A stretch of DNA of 55,937 bases, filler included, from Catajapyx aquilonaris (lineage: Eukaryota), in NCBI GenBank assembly GCA_000934665.2. It is 2 parts of 2 records of this genome, joined end to end, with 100 filler letters (N's around TTAATTAATTAA, not from the genome) between each part and the next. Parts side by side here need not be neighbours in the genome. Positions count along the whole stretch, not along the records: positions 1 to 27,558 come from JYFJ02005052.1; 1 more part is not named here. One strand, written 5' to 3'. The position numbers and the translations under genes were made by a program. Below, piece by piece: positions 2,035 through 30,600 of this stretch. How positions within the stretch are numbered: the stretch's first letter is position 1; each line of letters starts with the position of its first letter. The notes under the pieces are model-generated. The model saw nothing but the letters and a program-made list of their open reading frames with translations. It ran no database searches and had not been told where the DNA came from.

Positions 2035-5000
2035 AACATTTCAATAATTGCAACACTATGCATAATCCGTAGTGCTTTTTAAATAACTAAAAGATCTCCG
2101 GCAACGTTATTGTTTATATGAACAAAGGAGACTGTTTTATATTACAACTGCCTATATCTCCATACTAATGCATAACTTACGAGAAAAACTGCACATTTAA
2201 CGGATGTTAACAAAATGTTGCCTCTGTGCTAGAGGAGTCGCCCCTAAGCAGAATTTACATTACGTTAACTGTGCCTATCCGCTTTCTAAAGTAGTTTTTG
2301 TTCATCGTCTAGAAAACACGCAATATAACATGCCACAGTTCACTTGCACAGGAACAGTTTGGAAACAAAGCATTTCATGCTTTACAGATATTAATAACAA
2401 GTAATAAAAATAACATGTAGCAGGTAAGTTGATCATAAAATGAGCCAAGGCCAGTCACTTCCACAATTCCAAGCCCTGACAGCCATCCAATGAATGACAC
2501 TACAATACTAACTAGTAATTTAACAAAAATATGAATTAATTAGGACTACTCGATCACAATTGAACCACCACCATCACCACATCAAGGCAACAAATATTGC
2601 CTTGATCTACCACATACTACCACATAAGGATAAAATTAAGCCCCCATCCAGCCAAATCCAATTGTATAAAATGAAAATGCAATTTATAGATAAATGTTCC
2701 ATCAGTTCATTAAATTGTAAACCCATGATTAAATTAAAGTGTATCCGTATTCGAGGTGCGACGAGAATGGCTATACGAACAACAAAACACGAGGTGAGCA
2801 ATGCCACAAAACACGGGCTCAAAATGAAACCGGGCCGCCATGTAAAATGCATGCTCCTATTTTCTTTCTCTTATCTGCATAAAAGCTTAGTCTATTCAAA
2901 TAATTTTCGCCACGAACCACAATTTTAACCTTTTACAAAAGGCAAAGGTCCTAAAAACTGACGATTTGTTCCGGTTACAGAACTACATATTATTGAGCGA
3001 GTAGCGGTTACTTTTATGCTAGCCAGAGATTTTAATATCAGCGAGATTCTTCCTTAATTAATGTTTCGGTCAGCGTACATTGTTCCCACAGTATAAATAT
3101 AGTCCGGGGTTTCTAATTTTAAACCCGAGCCATTAACTAACCAAACACAGCGCAGGCCTATGCGACTGTGAAATTCGGATCATTGGGGAATAAACCCAAC
3201 TATCATCATCCGCCAACGGGTTTTGACGTACTAGAGCCCTGCAAACATTTGGAGAATCATCCGCCACGTTCCCACACTTCCACTCAAACGCTACTAATCA
3301 CCTACATCTCATTAAAAAGAGGGCTGGCATGCCATGGGTTTTTAGCGTGAAAGCAACTTCCCAAGGTCTTTTCTTTGCCGCTTCTGGAGCGAAAGTGATC
3401 TTCGACGAATCGTGCAATTATTTCCCGCTTCAACAATGCGAAGATTAGAGGAATCAGAAGAATGCTGATATAGGGAAAGAGCAACGGACAGTTTGGGAAT
3501 TAACGAATTGCAGAGGATTTTCACAGCATGGACAGCTTTGCTGGGAAAAACTGCAGGGCATATCACATATGATCGAAAAGAGTTCGAATGTGCACATCCA
3601 TGCTGGACATCCCTATATAGTAATGTCCATAGAAGATGATGATTGTGATTGTACTGGCGAAAAAAACGACGACATTTTGTAAGGAGTCATTTTCTCTAAC
3701 ATAAGACAAAATGACAATATAGCGGTGGTCATGCCAATGTATTGGAGACATACATAATGTACTGAACTGTGTCACATTTTGATATTGATACAGTGAAGGA
3801 ATGAGACACTTTTCACACTCATATTCCATACTTTTCTACCTCTTGGACGTCACGTACGAAGGATTTTATTCCTCTCGAGAGCAGCTGTTACCTCGATATA
3901 TTGCACTGTAATAATGTGAGTGTTTCCTTCCTGAATTCTTTTATTTTGGGAGCACAATTGTAGATCACATCATTTCTGCAGGCAGCACTTCGTCTGTATA
4001 CAGTATAACAGGGTAAACAGAAAAGCGTATGTTTTCCGCGACAGTGCAAAGCATTGCAGCATTTCAATTTTCATGACAGAAAATTGTTCATCGCTTGTTT
4101 CATCGCTTATTATACTACCGCAAGGCCATGCAAAAAATGACTAAAATTGGTATTGAGCTAGGAATAACCGAACTACCTAGCTCTCTATGTAACACCTTCA
4201 GCCCCAGAGTGATGTTTCAGCATTTTGACCTTTCATCATGCTGTCTGTGCCTTCAAAGCTCTGGCGAGTATTTTCATAACTTCGCTTGTTAGGAGGAAGT
4301 CATCCTCAGGGTAGGCTTCTTGAATATACTAAATAAGCTCAGCTGTTGTTTACCAGGAAGTGCAGAGGCGAGTATCACGTTGAACCTGGGTCATCATGCT
4401 AAGGAAGACTTTGCACTGTACTGTACTGCATGGAAATTGTACGCTGCTATTGATATTTTATCTCCCAGCACAGATGCAACACGGCTGCCCGGACTCTATT
4501 TACTCACTTTTCAATTTTAAATTGCATAAATAATAGAGCTCTGTCAAGCTTTAACCAAAAATATGACCATTTAGTATTGCAAGTAAACAGTCATATATTA
4601 AAGTTGTATTATTTCGATGGAGTAGGCCTACTAATCACTGCAGTACATTTTATAGAAAATGAAATAGACATCTCTGCGACTTTCAAAGGTCATAAGTGGG
4701 GGAAGTGCCCTGTACGGCTGTAATTCCTTCTGTCAAAGGGTCTACGAGCCTTGCAGACCATTTGACTTTACTCTTACAGTGCCACAGAGCTGCTTGACTC
4801 CCGGGCACACCGACGGACCTTTTCAAAACCGCACGATCTAAAGTTGCTGCCTCTATGGGGAAAGTCCTGGTGCCGAGGTAGCCTCACATGAACTGAGACA
4901 TTAACAACCTTTTTACACTACAGAGTGTATTTAATAAGTTAGCACACAACCACATCGTAAATGTCTCGCGGACCATAATTTCCACTCGTCCTTGCGACCT

Positions 5001-21145: not shown

Positions 21146-21199
21146 TTACAGCTCATCCTTACGGGGAGCGTCGTCATCTTCATCCTCCTCTTCATCCTG
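21146..21199 (-). CDS. Pdi: Pdi last coding exon: [17 protein letters not shown]
   Basis: tttttag|CAG acceptor (tandem TAGCAG), acidic c region, KDEL ER-retention signal, TAA at 21146-21148. Confidence 0.95.
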   Translation of the reverse strand, partial: QDEEEDEDDDAPRKDEL

Positions 21200-24100
21200 C
21201 TAAAAATTTCATGTTGTTAGATTATTGCTCATTCAGTTCAGTTCGAATTGTTTTTTTCATAACTTTTGGGATTATTTCAATGGTTAAAAACACAGTCAGA
21301 CTAGTCTGCAGAGAAAGATGCAAAGTGAACTCTCCCCATTAGAAACGACACTCCATTGTGTCACTTGCAGTATGACATGCTTGGTCATAATGAATATTTC
21401 TCAAGGGAGAGCAGTTACAAAACTCTCCAGCAATCTAGCACGACACTGTTCTAAACCAATTCCTAACAGCTTGCAAACTAGTGAAAGCCACAGGTGATGT
21501 GCCCATGCAGGGAAACAACAGAAAAATAAAAAGAAAGAAGGTGGGAATCAATGGAGCGTAGTAACAACTACCTCAAATTCTGCCTGATCCGTGCGTCCTT
21601 CAATGAACTCAGACAAGCCTTCCAATGTTCGTTTTCCCGAATATTCTACCACCTAGTCCATGTCCAAAAAGAACCATGCACAGGACAGGACACCAACCAG
21701 AAAATAAATATGAAAAGAAAAGAAGAAGCCAAACAAAAATATTAGTGCCATGAAAGAAATATTAGTGCAGTAGCAGATCTACCCTACACTAGAAGTTGAT
21801 TTCCATCAAAGCAGTCAAGGGCCTGGAAAATAACTTACACTAGGTTCACTCTTTACCTCATCAGGGGCAGCCTGACCATATTCACCACCTGATTCCAAGA
21901 ACTTGGTCATCCCTTCCAATGTCCTCTCTCCATTGTATTCAACAATCTAGAAATGCATTGTTGGGTCAAAACAATAGACAAATCAAGTGACACTCGTTGT
22001 CCTGATGCTGCAAGAATCCACCTGAAAATATTACAAACCATGCCATCCAATAAATGCTGAACAGGTGTCCAGATATCATTGATTTTCCTTAAACTCCTGC
22101 ATTAACTCCCAAGGTTCACCTCAGTGTAACACAGTAGTAGCAATATGATCTGTTCCCATTAAAATTGAAACCTACATCATAGTAGTATACTAAATTTCCA
22201 CTGGCAGTTATCTTTTTCTTTTCAGGTTCACAGTTTTATAAAAACACTATTGAAAGTAGTAAAATAGTAAGGTTTCCTGTCAATGTTAAGTTTATCAAAT
22301 CGGAACTGGCATAGATCTCATAATTACAAGTTACGTTATATGGCAGATGCTTTGAGTGTGACATTAAATCAAAATCCTTCAGAAACACTCAAAATTCCAT
22401 TAATTCATTAGATTTTGATACTACTTTTATATCGTGTGCTTAGTTCTTTTAAAAATAATTATGCACAATATTAATAAAAATATATTATCGTGAATCAATA
22501 CTCATGTTTCCTGAACGTGCCTGCTGTAGCACCACACTACCATATATCTGAAATTTGTATACAAAGTGATGACTAAACTCACTCATTCAATATGACCCTG
22601 TAACCAACACTCACCTAAAATGCAATTGTCATTATAAGATTTTCAAATTTAAAAAAGAGCTGACCTTGTTGTCATCCTTCTTATAAAGCTTGATGGTTGG
22701 GTAGCTGATTATCTTGGTGTGCTCAAGCTCATTGGCAGTGGCATCCATCTTGGCAATAATGATGGATGGATGATCCTTGTACTTCTCAGCCAGCTCTTCA
22801 TAAATTGGAACCAGCTGCTTGCAGTGTCCACACCAAGGAGCATAAAACTCAACCAAGACATCCTTGTCCTTGTCCATTGCCACAGTGTCAAAGTTGGATG
22901 ACACCAAGACCTTCACTGGGGTCTTGTCCCAGTCATCAGGCAGGTCTTGAGACAGGAGGTGTTGCTAAAAAAATTCAAAAATTAAGTCAGTTGCCTGCAA
23001 CACAATAACGCTCTTTGTAGAGCAAAACATGAGTGCGAATACATCTCAAAAGACACTTCATACGAGTATTAGCATAGACTAATCTCCCCTGTGTCACACC
23101 TTGAGCTTTCCATCAATGAAGTCCTTCACGAATGACCTGATGTTCTCCTCAGTGAAGTCACTGCTGGGGGGCTTGTACTTGGCCATCTCATCCTCAAGTC
23201 GGATCACCCTGATGCCAGGAAGCTCATCTTTCTTCATGCCAAAGAACTCCAGGATTCGCTGGTGGTCTTCTTCATCAGTGTCGATGGTGACAAACAGAAT
23301 CTGTGGAAAATTAAATGTGTGAAAATGTACCCTGCTTGATTCCGCCCTGATTGGCCATGTTTAAAGCTCCTCTAACCAGGAGGATAGAAGCAGGGAATGA
23401 GTACTCTTCCAACAGATTGTCAGAAAGTTACAGGCATTTCAAGCCTGCTTTCTAAGGGCTGTTGGATGTTGTTTAAAAGTAACAATTCTCTTCTCCACAA
23501 GAGCCCCTTCCAAAATTCTGAGCTTAAAATTTAGTGAACTATAATTTGATTATAACCATGTTGTCACCAGTCACAGTAAGAAACAACAAAATGAGTATCA
23601 CATCCCTATTAATCATACAGGCCTCTGGGCCAAGCTACAAACTTGGTATGTACGTTATTATAAAGAAATATATCTGTGTGCAAAAAAAGTTTGCTCAATT
23701 TTTTCCACAGATTTATCAAATCGTTTTTGAATTGTCAATAACCATGCATCCATGCTGCAACTATATTTGCATGACTTGATGTGAGTTAATACCTGCCCAA
23801 GTGTTGACACAACTTTCAATCGAAACCTGGTACACTATTTAAATTTATTTGTAGGCAATAATCCAAGATGATCACAATATTTTACTGCACTAGTGAGGGA
23901 AAGGTGCAAGAAGTCCAGTCACTCAAAAATGTAAGGTAGCAAGCCTGACATAGCCCCCAAGAGACATGTTCCTCCCTCACGACTCATGAGATCTGGGGAA
24001 GATTTCATCTAATTTCAGCTTCAGGCTTGCTACATTGCATTTTCAAGTGACTGTACTTGGATCAGGATGGCTGAGGGGGTAAGAGTCCTTGCCTTTGATC

Positions 24101-27024
24101 TGCTAGGACAGGAGGAGTAGGAGGAGGTAGCTGCTTGGGGTAAACAGTGTGAACAGGATGAAAGTGCATGGGTTAGCAGTGCACAGGAACTTGACCTTCA
24201 GGCATGCTACCCATTGCCCTCCAATTGAAGTTTAACTACAATGATCGAGAAATGAACTCTACCTGGTCCTTGTAGTCCTTGGCAACTTTGCGAGCAACCT
24301 CAACCTGCTGGGCGAATTCGGCACTTCCCTTCGAGACAAAGAGGAGAACGTGGCTCTTGATTTCGCCACCAAAAATCTTCTGGGCAGTCTCATGGTTGAA
24401 TTCCACCACCAGAGGCAGGGCATTTGTCTTCACATGCTTAGTCAAGGACTCCTCGGTCATTCCAGCTGCTGGCAACTCATTCCTGCCCTCATCAAACTAT
24501 TAAGAAAAATTTCATCTTGTTACAGGTGAAAATATGCTCTATTCGTGACAGGAAAGTGTAACATGTCCCACAAGAAAGCTGCTGCACAATGGCTCATTGT
24601 TTTAAATTATTTGTCAAGTGCTCCATACGCCAATTAATATTGTTCAATTGGTATATCATTGCTTGATTGGACCAAGCACTTTCAATTAAATTGAAGTCAA
24701 TTTCTCTTGAAATCCTAGCTCACCTTCTTAAGCAGGAGGACAGTGCATTGACTAATTCCATATTCTGAGAAGACAGAATCATCCGAAGTGATGGCAAATG
24801 GGATGTCATCAAGTGCACTTGCTACAGCCAAGAAGGTCTTGGCATCTGCACCTTCCTGGTCCCTGAAAAATCCAATCACAGACACTTGTGAAGCTTCTTG
24901 GAATGCCTTTGCTTCTTCCACAGTGGTGATACTCTTTGCAGGTGGGCCTGTCTTCTTCTCTACCCAAGCGACAATCTCATCACCGGTACGTCCTCCTGCA
25001 AACAGAAAACAAGGTACACTTTACTTTTATCTGTGATTCCACCTCTCAATGTCATTCACCACAGGCAGCACAATGAGCATCCCTTTTCATTTTATAAGCA
25101 GTTACGTCACCAACAGAATCTGTGGAAAATTAAAAGTGTAAAAATGTACCCTGCTTGATTCCGCCCTGATTGGCCATGTTTAAAGCTCCTCTAACCAGGA
25201 GGATAGAAGCAGGGAATGAGTACTCTTCCAACAGATTGTCAGAAAGTTACAGGCATTTCAAGCCTGCTTTCTAAGGGCTGTTGGATGTTGTTTAAAAGTA
25301 ACAATTCTCTTCTCCACAAGAGCCCCTTCCAAAATTCTAAGCTTAAAAATTAGTGATCTATATATTTGATTCTAATCATGTTGTCACCAATCACAGTCAG
25401 AAACAAGTTTGATCAAAATGAGTATGATATCCCTATTAATCATACCCTCATCATACATGAGAGGCATATAGGTGCAGTATTCCTTAAAAAAACTGTCGTG
25501 GAGTGGAAGCATTACACTCAATTATGTTGATTGTTAACATTATACCAGTGGTTTCCAACCAGGGGGTAGCAGGCAGGGTCGCGAGCCTTGGTTCAACTGT
25601 TTTTTTGTGTGTGCAATTTCTGTGTCGATTGAACCATTTTGCGGCCGTACAGAGCGTATGTTTTCTGGAAAGGGGGTAACAGTTGGTAAAAGGTTGGAAA
25701 CCACTGCAAACCTGTGTATAGCGGAATCGCACGGGACCCCAAAAATTTTCCGTTATGGATAGGTTTCCACTATAACCAGATCATGGATGCTACTGATTTC
25801 TTTCTTTCTTTTTTTTTTTTTTTGCCCACGAGAAAGATTGGAAAATGGGGAGCGCAAAATTAAGCACCTTACCTCAATATGGTGCAAAATCATAATTTTA
25901 CCTGCTCCATAGGACCATCAACCCGGACTCGAGCAATATGTTGAACCCGTGTCAACCCTTTCCTCTTCCCCGACATTTTAAAACTGGACTGAACCGTGAA
26001 CTGAAAGGCACTGCTACGTTCATGGCCGTTTTTCGAGTTTCCCAATCAAAAATAGTCCCCTTTTCCCACTCTTTATCTTCAAGGCTACAGCCCATAGCAA
26101 TTATGAGACACAGGTCCAAAAAGGGTTACTCAGAGGCCTCCTGGGAGGGCCCGGAACTCAGCTGTAGTTTATATTTTTGTGACTCGCAGGAGAAAATGCG
26201 AACCTTTTGATTTCCGTTATGAACAGAGATTTTCTCTGAAGGGAGCCAAAAATCCCTTCCGTTTCCGCGTTGGGCAGGTTCCATTATATCCGTCAAAAAA
26301 TACATTGCATACCCTACGCATATGCCCATTCCTGGAAAAAATTCTGTAATGGGATAGTTTCCGCTATATCCAGGGTCCGTTATGGGCAGGTTTCACTGTA
26401 CTATAACCGCCACTCCACTCGAGCTCCCATTTCCCCCTCAATTTCCCATTTCTATTACAATTATTCAAGCTGAACACTACTGAAACAATTCACCAAGTAC
26501 TTCACATGTAATAGAAATACATTGCACACTTCATGCTAACTCATACCAGTTACCCTTGAGCCATTCACAAAATGTGAATAGCTCTGCATGTAGATATCAT
26601 CTGAAATCCCATCCCATATCCTCCATAACTTTCCACACAAAGCCTATCACTTCCCTCTCTAACAAAGCAGCTAACGTTTCATAACTCTAATTTTAAATGT
26701 TCAAAAAATCCAGTTCCCCCCTTGCGTAGCATGTCCACAGTGCAAATACACCATGTGCTCATCAGTAGACAGTCATCAATATCAATTAATTGTACCCTGC
26801 AAGAAATGAAAGAAAACATAACATACCAGTGTATTCAATTGGCTTCCCATCCCTGTAGAACTTGAGAGTTGGGTATCCCCTGATGTTAGTCTTCTCAGCA
26901 AGTTCAGTCTCCTCTGTGGCATCCACCTTGCCCAGCTTGATATCTGAGCCCTTTTCTGTCAGCTTCTGTGCTGCCTTAACATATTCAGGGGCTAGAGCTT
27001 TGCAGTGACCACACCAGGGGGCAT
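21146..27024 (-). CDS. Pdi: Protein disulfide-isomerase (PDIA1/P4HB type, a-b-b'-a'-c), 5'-incomplete spliced gene: complement(join(21146..21199,21857..21946,22665..22964,23100..23300,24263..24496,24724..24995,26827..27024))
   Basis: Seven exons with canonical GT-AG boundaries and compatible phases join in frame (1349 nt including stop). Two APWCGHCK thioredoxin active sites, YP cis-Pro loops (GYPTLKF, SYPTIKL), acidic tail and KDEL-stop. The signal-peptide exon was not found in the window. Confidence 0.97.
21572..21652 (-). CDS. Pdi: Pdi penultimate exon, variant B (duplicated, candidate mutually exclusive exon): [27 protein letters not shown]
   Basis: gactag|GTG acceptor, GAG|gtagtt donor, 81 nt, same phase as variant A, open frame, 11 of the first 18 residues identical to variant A. 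Confidence 0.82.
21655..21778 (-). promoter_or_regulatory. AG-exclusion zone with distant branch points and polypyrimidine tract upstream of exon B
   Basis: No AG on the minus strand for 124 nt; two CACTAAT motifs (21741-21747, 21761-21767) followed by a long U/C tract. Confidence 0.65.
21857..21946 (-). CDS. Pdi: Pdi penultimate exon, variant [31 protein letters not shown]
   Basis: ttctag|ATT acceptor, GAG|gtaaag donor, 90 nt, phase 0; YNGERTL motif that closes the a' domain. Confidence 0.93.
22665..22964 (-). CDS. Pdi: Pdi exon, x-linker and a' domain: [21 protein letters not shown]...[14 protein letters not shown]...[13 protein letters not shown]
   Basis: ttttag|CAA acceptor, AAG|gtcagc donor, 300 nt; second WCGHC; overlaps ORF 22632..22916. 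Confidence 0.97.
23100..23300 (-). CDS. Pdi: Pdi exon, b' domain: [44 protein letters not shown]...FIDGKLK
   Basis: ttttccacag|ATT acceptor, AAG|gtgtga donor, 201 nt; RILEFFG motif. Confidence 0.95.
23293..23618. repeat. Direct duplication, copy 1 (snoRNA, splice acceptor and first 8 exon nt)
   Basis: Aligns end to end with 25112-25445; core 23322-23519 is identical to 25141-25338. Confidence 0.97.
23323..23466 (-). ncRNA. Intronic box H/ACA snoRNA, copy 1
   Basis: Sense to Pdi. Hairpin 1 (TCCAACAG/CTGTTGGA base, internal pocket, AGAAAG/CTTTCT and CAGGC/GCCTG upper stems), H box AGAGTA (23402-23407), hairpin 2 (CCCTGCTT/AAGCAGGG base), ACA at 23326-23328 followed by TTT; 144 nt. Confidence 0.85.
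23916..24053. mobile_element. Tc1/mariner-type MITE in a Pdi intron
   Basis: 33-bp imperfect terminal inverted repeats (CAGTCACT...AGCCTGA / TCAGGCT...AGTGACTG), 4 mismatches; TA on the right, TC on the left. Confidence 0.6.
24263..24496 (-). CDS. Pdi: Pdi exon, b/b' junction: [12 protein letters not shown]...[23 protein letters not shown]...KDYKDQ
   Basis: aatag|TTT acceptor, CAG|gtagag donor, 234 nt; typical PDIA1 [16 protein letters not shown] motif. Confidence 0.95.
24724..24995 (-). CDS. Pdi: Pdi exon, end of a domain and b domain: [19 protein letters not shown]...CTVLLLKK
   Basis: tttgcag|GA acceptor, AAG|gtgagc donor, 272 nt (phase 1 to 0); overlaps ORF 24715..24921. Confidence 0.95.
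25112..25445. repeat. Direct duplication, copy 2
   Basis: Aligns with 23293-23618. Confidence 0.97.
25142..25285 (-). ncRNA. Intronic box H/ACA snoRNA, copy 2 (identical to copy 1)
   Basis: Same sequence offset by 1819 nt, in a different Pdi intron; H box 25221-25226, ACA 25145-25147. Confidence 0.85.
25546..25706. mobile_element. hAT-like MITE
   Basis: Perfect 15-bp TIR CAGTGGTTTCCAACC / GGTTGGAAACCACTG; no intact 8-bp target-site duplication. Confidence 0.75.
25707..26398. mobile_element. pogo/Tigger-like non-autonomous DNA element
   Basis: Right end ...CCGTTATGGGCAGGTTTCACTG|TA; damaged left end AAACCTGTGTATAGCGGAA abutting the hAT-like MITE; repeated subterminal TTCCGTTAT/TTCCGCTAT motifs. 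Confidence 0.6.
26827..27024 (-). CDS. Pdi: Pdi first visible exon, a domain: (Y)[65 protein letters not shown](G)
   Basis: ctaatgcag|AT acceptor, ACTG|gtatgt donor, phase 1 at both ends, WCGHC motif. Not in the ORF track. Confidence 0.96.
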
Positions 27025-27558
27025 CTGCATTAGAGCAAAAAAAGACATTCGTAAGTTGCTATTTCTGTGAGGTAGCGCAACTTCAAATTTATAAAACAGT
27101 CCGGCCCGGAAAATTCACTACCATTTAAAAAAATTGTCTGCAAACATAACCACCATAAATTTGAACTTGTTTTCTCTCTCTATAATGAATTCAATAGTAT
27201 CGAGACTTCTGCACAAGGGCCATGGCCCAGCAGGGAAATAAAACTTATAAACTTATTATTATTATTGAGACTTGATTGAATATCACAAAAAACTCAAACC
27301 AAAATTGAATCGTCTGACACGTGTGGATATTTTAAACACCTAGCACAAAACTCTTTTTTACTTTTGTCATGAAAAATTACTTGAATGCTACTCTGTGATA
27401 CTAAAATAATATAAGTTACTGCCAGATGTTTGGGTATGTGCAGGAATTAAACTTCTACACAAGCACTGCACCAACGGTACGCCTTTCCAGTGCTCAAAAA
27501 TTCGAAAGACTGGCAATGAAATACCTACATTTTTTCAGCTTTCCTAACACTCCCCGGA

Positions 27559-27658
27559 NNNNNNNNNNNNNNNNNNNNNNNNNNNNNNNNNNNNNNNNNN
27601 NNTTAATTAATTAANNNNNNNNNNNNNNNNNNNNNNNNNNNNNNNNNNNNNNNNNNNN
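27559..27658. other. Artificial contig join: N44-TTAATTAATTAA-N44
   Basis: Exactly 100 bp, symmetric, with a central 12-mer that has stop codons in all six frames. Confidence 0.92.
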
Positions 27659-30600
27659 CCCCCCCCCATTCCAACTTGCCAAACCCTAACTTTTTGCACA
27701 CACTCAAACCTCCTCCTTCCCCCTCTCATTCCCTCCCCTAGTTCCCTTCCATCACACAGTGCAAATCAGCGGACGTGAAAGGTAAGCCTCAGTTCATTTG
27801 GCAGGCTAGTCTGCTACGAGGATCGCTCTTCTTTTCCAAATGTAGCGCATGCTGAAAAGTGCTGTGCTTTCCAGTCCTCCCCGCTCCGCCTTCCCCCTCC
27901 TCACCCCCCAAAAAACCCCGCCCAGGCCCAGGAGGTGCTTCAACCTCACCTATAATCATACAAGCGCCTCTACCCCCCCATCTAGAAAAGTGTCTGCCGA
28001 AATGCAACCAAAACCTTTCATCATCTTGTTGACTCTTTCTCCCCCCCTCCTCCTCCTGAAACTCCCTTATGATATTACCAATCAAGAAGGAACTACAGGA
28101 GTTTGCTACTAGATGTTTATTGACGACTATGATATTGACCGTTTTTTTTTTTTTACTCTGAGCCCACAAGCCTAACCCTCCCCCAAACTCAGATCACTGG
28201 TGCTGAATATAAAAAGTTGCAGGCATTCAACTCTCTAAACTTGAGGGGGGGTTGAATTTAGTAGGGCGACTCGATGTGAATTACAAAAACCCTCCAAGTT
28301 AGGTTTCATCAGCATGAAGGTGGGGTCTCAAAATGGGTGGGGACCTCAACACCCATCCTGCCCGAAAAAAAAAAAAATCGGGAGGGGGAAAAAAAAGTGG
28401 AAGAATAGCATAACTGTGCGAAACGTTTATGTATACGCGTTGAAGGGAGAGAATGAAACGCGAGATATTTGCCAGAAGATGATGTCCGCAAATTCGGTTT
28501 GTAAGAGGAGGGAGCCTGGTTTTCCAGTAGGGGGAGAATACGCAGTGTGTTTGAACATTCTATTACCTTGAGTTATGTGGTGCAGAAGCGGAGTCAGGAT
28601 TCTTCCTCCATCCACCCTCCACAATCCGGATGGGGGATGGGGGAAAAAAAAGTTGCTGGACTTCTGATACGACAGAAGTCCGTTTAAGCAGTGAGAAACT
28701 GCGGAAGGCTGCAGATTTACTGAGAAATTCAAATGGCAGAATGGCAAGGAATAATGCATGTAGGGAATTGTTTTAAAAAAATCTCAGCGAAATTACGTCT
28801 ATAAGAATTTATTAAGCACAATCTATACGCAACCCAATTGTCAAACAAGCCGTTTGTCACAGGCAATAATCCGACAACTACCCCTCTGGCTCGTTTGAGC
28901 AGATGGTTCGACTCACCTTGTATTTCGCCCCCCCTCTGCCTTGTAATCGCTCCTCAGTCACCTTTACAACTCATTCGCTTAGCGATAACACACCAAATCC
29001 CCCCTGCTGATCGATAGATATAACTCCTATCAATTCCAGAGTGGGAGGCCCACATTTGCATAGAGTGCTTCTTCCGGCCAATGCGGGCACAAGTGCAGGG
29101 GTTTTTTTTTTAGCGGAACGGATCACACGTTTTTTTTCGCATACACTCGTGCAAAATAATTTTCCGACGTCACATCCGGCCATTTTCTTCCTCCAGGTTA
29201 CCGCATTCCTTTGGCCTCCACGTTCAAGTCATCCGGACTGCTCTTCCGTGAAACCCTATTTATTTTATCCGGTCGTTTGGAAACGCGGTTTTGTGCAGAA
29301 TGGCATGCATAAATAATGTGCCTACGGACATACGACCTGCGTATGCACATTCGAGTAAAAAAATTTGTATTTAAAGAAAAACCTCTAAACAAGCAGTTGA
29401 TTGCAATTACAGTTCACCCGCAGCTATTTCCCCTCACAAACATTACCCCCCCCCCCTCCCCCCAAGCGTTGCTCTCTCGCAGCGGTAGATACTGCAAAGT
29501 TTACTGATTAATTAGTCGATTAATCGATTTTAAATAATTTTAAAACCCCCCGAATGCCAGAAACCTCCCCCCAATTTCAGTAATGGAATATTCAAAGTCC
29601 GCAATAAAAACTGTGACAATAAAATCAATGACACGAAAAAATATTCATGGCTTGCCCCCTCCATCCTAATTAGAATACTACTGCCGCACATAAAAATTAA
29701 TGGCAAAAACTCGCATTTTTGCTGTGTCACTCATTAATCCCGGAATCTCCCTCAAAAAAATAAAAATCGAATTGTATTGCACTCCTGGAAAATTTCCCCC
29801 TTGTAAAATGCTTTACTGCTTAATTATTTTTCCCTAGCTAAAACCAAGGAGGGCGGTTCAAGTGGCAAAAACTTCCTTCGAGAAAAACAAAGATGTTGTG
29901 TAAGAGATCCCGAATAATTCCATTCCTTCCCATCTTCCCCCCTTTCCATTCTTTTCCCTCCTCCAGCAAAAGACGCTCCGAAACAATTACTGCATGCTGT
30001 AAAATAATTTGATTAAAGACCCCCCCACTAATGAAAATGCAAGCAGTGGCACTCTGTTTACAAAAGTATAAGAGGGGGGGAGGGAGAGGGGGTGGAAATA
30101 TGCAGGGTTGGGGGGGGAGGGCCGAATATAGGCAATTTTCCTAATATTATCTTCATAAATCTGTCCAGAAAGCTAAGTTTCCAGCCTCCCCTGGAATATT
30201 ATAAGGATGTTTCTTTTACAGCCCACTCTCCATGGGGGGGGGGGGGGGTTTGGTGAGGATGATCTCCGGCAGCGTCATCGCACTGGTCTCCAATTAATTT
30301 TATAACCCCCTTCCTTGTCATCGCTCATTAAAATCATGACGCATTCAGCGCTACATCCGCAGCCACCCAAAAAGCTGGAGGGACAAGGGCCGAGGATGGA
30401 ACTGCAAATATGGACCAGAGGAAGAGGATGAGAGGGTGGACATCGCCTAGGGGGGGAGGTCCACACTACCAATCAACGATCCATGTGTGTTTCCTAGTCT
30501 CCAGTTTTTTTCCCCTCCTCATGAAGTATACAGGTTCCCTCAAAAATATGAAGGGCAGGGGGGGGGGGGGANGGGGGGGAAGCTAGCTTATTACCATTTT

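Follow-up and report, generated by a model that had tools for sequence, protein, structure and literature searches.

A tandem-duplicated exon pair, probably spliced as alternatives, in the protein disulfide isomerase gene of Catajapyx aquilonaris

The Pdi locus and its adjacent homologous exons

[quoted passage not shown] Most of a PDIA1-type PDI gene, here called Pdi, is located on the minus strand of a stretch of 55,937 nucleotides (nt), filler included, from the Catajapyx aquilonaris assembly GCA_000934665.2 (hereafter the window). All features of the gene described below are on this strand. Between the exon for the second active site and the last exon, Pdi contains two homologous exons, A and B, which encode versions of the same segment of the a' domain and which, judged from their sequences and those of relatives, are probably used as alternatives. 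Exon A (21857..21946; 90 nt, 30 codons; borders ag/ATT and GAG/gtaaag, the slash marking the splice site) encodes an A-type strand beta5, Arg loop and helix alpha4 together with a linker. Exon B (21572..21652; 81 nt, 27 codons; borders ag/GTG and GAG/gtagtt) encodes a B-type beta5, Arg loop and alpha4. The two are separated by an intron of 204 nt (21653..21856), and a 718-nt intron (21947..22664) lies upstream of exon A. The constitutive a' exon (22665..22964) carries the second CGHC site, the cis-Pro and strand beta4, and it ends on a whole codon at 22665 (AAC AAG/gtcagc). The intron downstream of exon B (21200..21571) leads to the last exon, whose coding part (21146..21199) contains the acidic tail, the KDEL motif and the stop codon at 21148-21146. 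All junctions around exons A and B and the last exon are in phase 0. As is typical of mutually exclusive pairs, A and B are homologous neighbours of the same phase and of similar length, and both have canonical splice sites. The coordinates, splice borders, shared phase and 204-nt spacing given in a preliminary description of the locus, which had been made from the sequence alone, are all present.

The intron downstream of exon B ends in a tandem acceptor (tag/cag/), and the last exon starts at either 21199 or 21196. Depending on which of the two sites at 21196-21201 is used, the acidic tail would be preceded by one more Gln or not; in a relative (P0104), the tail starts without the Gln of the window's tandem acceptor.

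The remainder of the gene identifies its product. Searches with tblastn and splice borders placed the exon for the active site of the a domain (APWCGHCK...EYTG) at 26827..27024, the exon for the last part of the a domain and for the b domain at 24724..24995, an exon for the b/b' region at 24263..24496 and an exon for the b' region (ILFVTID...GKLK) at 23100..23300. The motif APWCGHCK occurs twice in the gene, and the exons align along full-length PDIs in tblastn searches. The encoded protein thus has the two CGHC thioredoxin domains with b and b' in between and the acidic C-terminal tail ending in KDEL that characterise the PDIA1/P4HB type. The coding sequence of about the first 40 residues, where an N-terminal signal peptide would be expected, was not detected in the window by tblastn; runs of N are present at about 27550-27660, immediately upstream of the first PDI exon that was detected. 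The PDI of the window is about equally distant from many pancrustacean PDIs (64-69% identity), and the best identity to its a' exon in the searched protein collection is 85%.

The gene also contains a repeat of about 290 nt (96% mean column identity), of which the window has only two minus-strand copies, at 23270-23580 and 25085-25400. One copy lies in the intron that precedes the exon at 24995-24724; it carries the acceptor (ttttccacag) and approximately the first 13 nt of the exon at 23300-23100 and is therefore a decoy acceptor that originated inside the gene.

Similarity of exons A and B and age of the duplication

Exons A and B encode identical residues at 11 of their first 18 positions, and 4 of these 11 residues are specified by different synonymous codons (GTT/GTA, TAC/TAT, AGG/CGA and GGG/GGC). 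The alignment reproduces the identity that the preliminary description had reported, and the four codon differences and the charge swaps flanking the Arg (E to K and K to E) that it had listed were likewise found. The local BLOSUM62 score of the pair is 69; residue shuffles of B gave a mean score of 19.3 and a maximum of 47, and 0 out of 20000 shuffles reached 69. Moreover, when A is compared with 1892 stop-free pieces of at least 20 amino acids from the six frames of the window, B ranks directly behind A itself, and the next piece scores 36. Over the 18 aligned codons, the proportions of synonymous (pS) and nonsynonymous (pN) differences are 0.72 and 0.23, respectively, which corresponds to a ratio of nonsynonymous to synonymous substitution rates (dN/dS) of about 0.12 for a small sample with synonymous sites near saturation. 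Within these bounds, the value is a signature of purifying selection, in line with the earlier claim of selection on the protein, and the divergence of A and B fits an old duplication of which both copies are under protein-level constraint. A third exon copy was found in the window neither by tblastn with a word size of 2 nor by the six-frame scan, and the pyrimidine-rich direct repeats on either side of B have no further module beside them.

Across species, the comparison of A with A plus B with B beats the cross comparison in 167 out of 190 pairs. When the A/B label is placed on a tree computed from 20 columns, it requires 2 changes versus a mean of 15.6 for shuffled labels. Fourteen pancrustacean B exons form one group with a support of 91 in the Shimodaira-Hasegawa-like approximate likelihood ratio test (SH-aLRT), and a single group of all A exons is not rejected by the 20-column tree (p value of the approximately unbiased test, p-AU, 0.43). 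Together, the tree and the species-pair comparisons support a common origin of the exon pair in Pancrustacea. The B exons of spiders group with the A exons of spiders (support 87), which is compatible both with one arthropod-wide origin and with repeated duplication or gene conversion.

Assignment of the two exons to the A and B types

For classifying the two exons, profiles were derived from 19 A exons and 27 B exons of other species, with the window excluded. Exon A of the window scores 71.2 bits with the A profile versus 44.7 bits with the B profile, and exon B scores 44.5 bits with the B profile versus 34.1 bits with the A profile. By profile, exon A is thus assigned to the A type and exon B to the B type. 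Moreover, the B-type isoform of Macrobrachium rosenbergii matches exon B of the window at an E value of 0.002 and exon A at 0.04.

The individual positions give a more detailed picture. At position 15, located in alpha4, all 19 A exons have Lys, whereas 18 of the 27 B exons have Asp or Glu and one has Lys; in the window, A has Lys and B has Glu. At position 7, which precedes the Arg, Glu is present in 18 of the 19 A exons and Ala in 11 of the 27 B exons, and here the window has Glu in A and Lys in B. Position 3 is Glu in 16 of the 19 A exons and Asp in 17 of the 27 B exons, and it is Glu in both exons of the window. At positions 19-20, A exons have Thr or Ser followed by Gly or Asp, whereas B exons often have Gly-Lys; the window has Ser-Gly in A and Gly-Arg in B. 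Furthermore, exon B of the window retains the Gly, Arg, Thr, Leu and Phe residues as do 9 other B exons.

The exon pair in other arthropods

Relatives were collected in two ways: the a' exon served as a search query, after which 90% clusters were consulted, and two profile searches were run with the B form. Seven protein pairs show 0 mismatches over bodies of 445-450 amino acids and carry an A-type segment in one member and a B-type segment in the other. Pairs with RefSeq isoform names are known from Daphnia pulex (A-type P0154 and B-type P0147; XP_046445235.1/XP_046445239.1), D. magna (P0149/P0153; XP_032778565.2/XP_032778566.2), Macrobrachium rosenbergii (P0124/P0125; XP_066941627.1/XP_066941628.1), M. 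nipponense (P0060/P0123; XP_064084587.1/XP_064084588.1) and Pollicipes pollicipes (P0127/P0061; XP_037093583.1/XP_037093584.1). The other pairs, P0135/P0134 and P0135/P0141, come from JGI contigs of about 2 kb. RefSeq also names A and B isoforms for Parasteatoda, and the profile searches with the B form revealed B-type isoforms named for Neocloeon, Ischnura, Palaemon and Penaeus as well as a B-type protein of Trinorchestia. The preliminary description had known of no such isoforms in PDIA1 genes and thus overstated the novelty of the exon pair, given the isoform pairs that RefSeq names in Daphnia, Macrobrachium, Pollicipes and Parasteatoda and the B-type isoforms of the four genera named above.

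Among the 319 proteins that were fetched, 237 contain one module (an A- or B-type segment), 17 contain two, and 65 contain none or are unclear, the latter being mostly other PDI paralogues and fragments. The 17 two-module proteins come from mites, spiders, a centipede, an isopod, a springtail, a dragonfly, Daphnia and a prawn, and in all of them A precedes B. Thirteen are clean A-B joins, all of them genome annotation records, one is a RefSeq model with a short in-frame insert, and three are Logan contigs with intron read-through. The a' exon also identified 80 metagenome loci. A pattern match detected a module in 52 of them and two modules in one (contig L007), in which exons A and B have AG/GT borders and are separated by an intron of 160 nt (2736-2895); in none of the 80 loci are A and B adjacent in frame. 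Both copies have thus been kept across species, as judged from the 17 two-module proteins and L007. In named neopteran insects (e.g. Gryllus, Nilaparvata, Bacillus rossius, Apis and Neodiprion), the tails that were read contain one module, although the searches were not built to prove absence.

The collected proteins allow some additional observations. In Parasteatoda tepidariorum, four named isoforms (P0059, P0128, P0129 and P0130) differ not only in the choice between A and B but also in whether the tail begins with the five residues IKKPK, so that another, small alternative event is suggested. The single module of P0045, P0046 (Anopheles stephensi) and P0052 ends in ...FVKFLEGE.DEQ, which is nearer to the B-type ending than to the A-type linker, and a simple rule classed these proteins as B. 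Finally, gene models of about 497-630 residues (P0152, P0157, P0161, P0162, P0165, P0166, P0170-P0173 and P0210), found in the genome annotations of several arthropods, join both exons and repeat beta5 and alpha4. Gene models of this kind are likely annotation errors. The exon pair accounts for an excess length of about 25-30 residues in several PDI gene models of arthropods, in which both exons are joined.

Structure of the exchanged segment

The segment encoded by exons A and B consists of strand beta5, the Arg loop and helix alpha4 of the a' thioredoxin domain and a short linker to the acidic tail. The B-type protein P0125 aligns along the human PDI chain 8eoj_A with an E value of 3.9e-183. 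In an AlphaFold2 model of P0125, which was computed from an alignment of 65 sequences and has a mean predicted local distance difference test (pLDDT) score of 88.1, the strand comprises residues 452-454 and the helix residues 461-468. The block has a pLDDT of 90, and the tail from residue 473 has values below 50. Gly457 and Arg459 of P0125 are invariant in 65 of the 65 aligned sequences. According to a passage in PMC3017771, which cites Lappi 2004, the conserved Arg that modulates the active-site Cys pKa sits in the loop between beta5 and alpha4. With the P0125 model, the alignment to 8eoj_A and this placement of the Arg, the structural statement of the preliminary description, namely that the segment is the last strand and helix of a' and carries the conserved Arg, therefore holds.

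Splicing signals and possible mechanisms of exclusion

The acceptor of exon B differs from the others of the gene. Its AG-free zone has a length of 124 nt, whereas those of the other seven acceptors are 17-44 nt long, and the last 100 nt of the A-B intron are 69% pyrimidine. Moreover, this intron contains two copies of GCACTAATATTT, whose candidate branch-point A residues precede exon B by about 109 and 89 nt; branch points were predicted from motifs throughout. The long AG-free, pyrimidine-rich stretch and the CTAAT motifs form the signature of a distant branch point for exon B. The idea that a long AG-free zone is conserved as a mark of exon B was considered and rejected. In L007, the zones are 127 nt long for exon B and 128 nt long for the last exon, so that the feature is not specific to B there.

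Several known ways of preventing two exons from being joined were compared with the sequence. The donors gtcagc, gtaaag and gtagtt and the acceptors, all of which end in AG, do not match the U12 splice-site consensus and are not of the U12 type, which rejects an incompatibility of U2 and U12 sites. Exclusion by a frame shift followed by nonsense-mediated decay is likewise rejected by the exon lengths of 90 and 81 nt. Steric hindrance needs a branch point within about 50 nt of the upstream donor. Measured from the donor of exon A in the window, the AG-free zone begins at about 77 nt, and the CTAAT motifs, as predicted branch points, lie at about 95 and 115 nt. The predicted branch region thus keeps a distance of at least about 77 nt from this donor, and a steric block is not expected. 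In L007, the sequence TACTAAG is present 29 nt from the donor of exon A and is followed by a long pyrimidine tract; this position would fit steric exclusion in that organism. However, L007 is a distant relative, and long AG-free zones occur at two of its acceptors.

Pairing between introns was also assessed in a local helix scan. The candidate arms at 22430..22450 and 21667..21687 on the minus strand, the latter 15-35 nt upstream of exon B, pair introns I1 and I2 (22450-22430 with 21687-21667) with a score of 34, which is not significant because 4 of 60 dinucleotide shuffles score as high. For I3 with I2 and I1 with I3, 54 of 60 and 25 of 30 shuffles, respectively, were as high. A second selector for a docking-type pairing was not found in the scan of the introns of the gene.

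Interpretation and alternative explanations

It is quite probable that exons A and B are an alternative exon pair that arose by tandem exon duplication in the PDIA1-type Pdi of arthropods, and that one of them is present per mRNA. Each mRNA would take either A or B between the a' exon and the KDEL exon. The result would be two ER-retained PDI forms that are identical except for beta5, the Arg loop, alpha4 and the linker to the acidic tail. Exon B would also be used in C. aquilonaris, where A may be the default and B a regulated choice because B combines a weaker donor with the long AG-free, pyrimidine-rich acceptor region and its distant CTAAT candidates. The claim of mutual exclusivity in the preliminary description is supported insofar as relatives have proteins with the same body and either A or B. 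Strict exclusion is putative; RefSeq also names an isoform of M. nipponense with both exons.

Several observations weigh against an alternative exon pair as the explanation. The assignment of exon B of the window to the B type rests on about 10 bits, its 18-residue core scores higher against the A exons of most species than against their B exons, and the 20-column tree left it unplaced. The isoform names in RefSeq are automatic annotations, and an in-frame junction of A and B is present in the isoform P0126 of M. nipponense (525 amino acids) and in 12 other gene models. Such joining leaves the reading frame intact, both exons having lengths divisible by 3, and would escape nonsense-mediated decay. 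Moreover, the donor gtagtt of exon B is weak, and the metagenome locus L078, which has introns and an a' exon with 80% identity, contains just exon A, which precedes the KDEL exon by about 180 nt (4475-4809). Exon B can thus be absent in a relative.

The last two points, together with the single module in the named neopteran insects, for which absence of the second was not the aim of the searches, would also suit an exon B that is a silent relic of the old duplication and no longer spliced in by C. aquilonaris. This explanation appears improbable in view of an exon B with an open frame, AG/GT borders and the five residues shared with 9 other B exons. In addition, the low dN/dS relative to A, at near-saturated synonymous sites, the B-type pattern at the diagnostic positions and the long pyrimidine tract maintained upstream argue against a relic. 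Even less credence can be given to B as an ordinary cassette exon that is included together with A. Both exons would preserve the reading frame in such an arrangement, and the M. nipponense isoform and the clean joins in 13 of the 319 fetched proteins agree with it. However, all 13 joins are genome annotation records (ncbi/uniref), the three two-module Logan contigs keep intron sequence between the modules, and none of the 80 metagenome loci joins A and B in frame. Judged from the structural model, the joined form would also duplicate beta5 and alpha4 after a complete thioredoxin fold. That the resemblance of A and B is due to chance, or that B belongs to something else on either strand, is hardly conceivable: the shuffle test, the rank of B among the pieces of the window and the same tandem layout in 17 other proteins and L007 refute it.

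If A and B are alternative exons, the switch may alter the behaviour of the a' site or its binding. The residue before the mobile Arg is Glu in A and Lys in exon B of the window (often Ala elsewhere), and the charge at one position of helix alpha4 would be reversed from Lys in A to an acidic residue in B. A functional difference could arise from changed Arg dynamics that lead to a changed reactivity of the Cys. Alternatively, binding could be changed by the reversed charge of alpha4 and the loss of the Gly-rich linker. A farther-reaching and rather doubtful proposal is that one old switch across Pancrustacea, perhaps across all arthropods, gives two a' domains of different chemistry or with different partners. 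If this were true, one gene would supply, for instance, an oxidase-leaning and an isomerase-leaning form or forms for different partner enzymes. Independently of this proposal, a switch that is confined to beta5, the Arg loop and alpha4 and shows the same isoform-specific charges in many arthropod lineages offers a natural experiment in the tuning of the active site or of partner binding by this element. For the biology of splicing, the pair is a conserved two-exon case that fits none of the standard exclusion mechanisms examined here.

Comparison with known systems

Alternative exon pairs from tandem duplication are already known as a kind, and so are names of PDI isoforms in other species. 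Among open-access papers and bioRxiv preprints, searched in their main texts, none was found that describes alternative exons for a gene of the PDIA1 type, and the parts of PMC3827500, PMC8373072 and PMC5740500 reached by term look-up hold no such account.

The exon pair of the window is like the RefSeq isoform pairs of arthropod PDIs in that the same segment of the protein is swapped, the remainder is identical and the last exon is common. In these pairs, a ...SGG.YGQAAP linker is present in the A form; the B form is the shorter one and has an acidic residue in place of the Lys of A. Unlike most B exons of the relatives, which have VVDY, exon B of the window keeps VVEY as the A exons do.

In arthropods, clusters of mutually exclusive exons that arose by tandem exon duplication are known from Dscam1, Mhc and 14-3-3 zeta. 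As in these clusters, adjacent homologous exons of the same phase and of similar length would swap one element of a folded domain. In contrast to them, Pdi has two variants only, no significant pairing of the docking/selector kind was found in the local helix scan, and the lengths of both exons of the window are multiples of 3. In alpha-tropomyosin, the joining of exons 2 and 3 is prevented by a branch point that is too near to the upstream donor. Exon B of the window resembles this system by its predicted distant branch-point signature, but the AG-free zone and the CTAAT motifs are so far from the donor of exon A that a steric block is not expected.

A further parallel concerns prolyl 4-hydroxylase, of which P4HA1 is the alpha subunit and PDI the beta subunit. 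According to a passage in PMC8373072, the human P4HA1 gene has tandem-duplicated alternative exons. The gene and the protein are different from those described here, but P4HA1 and Pdi would share an old substitution by tandem duplication in an ER enzyme of the same complex.

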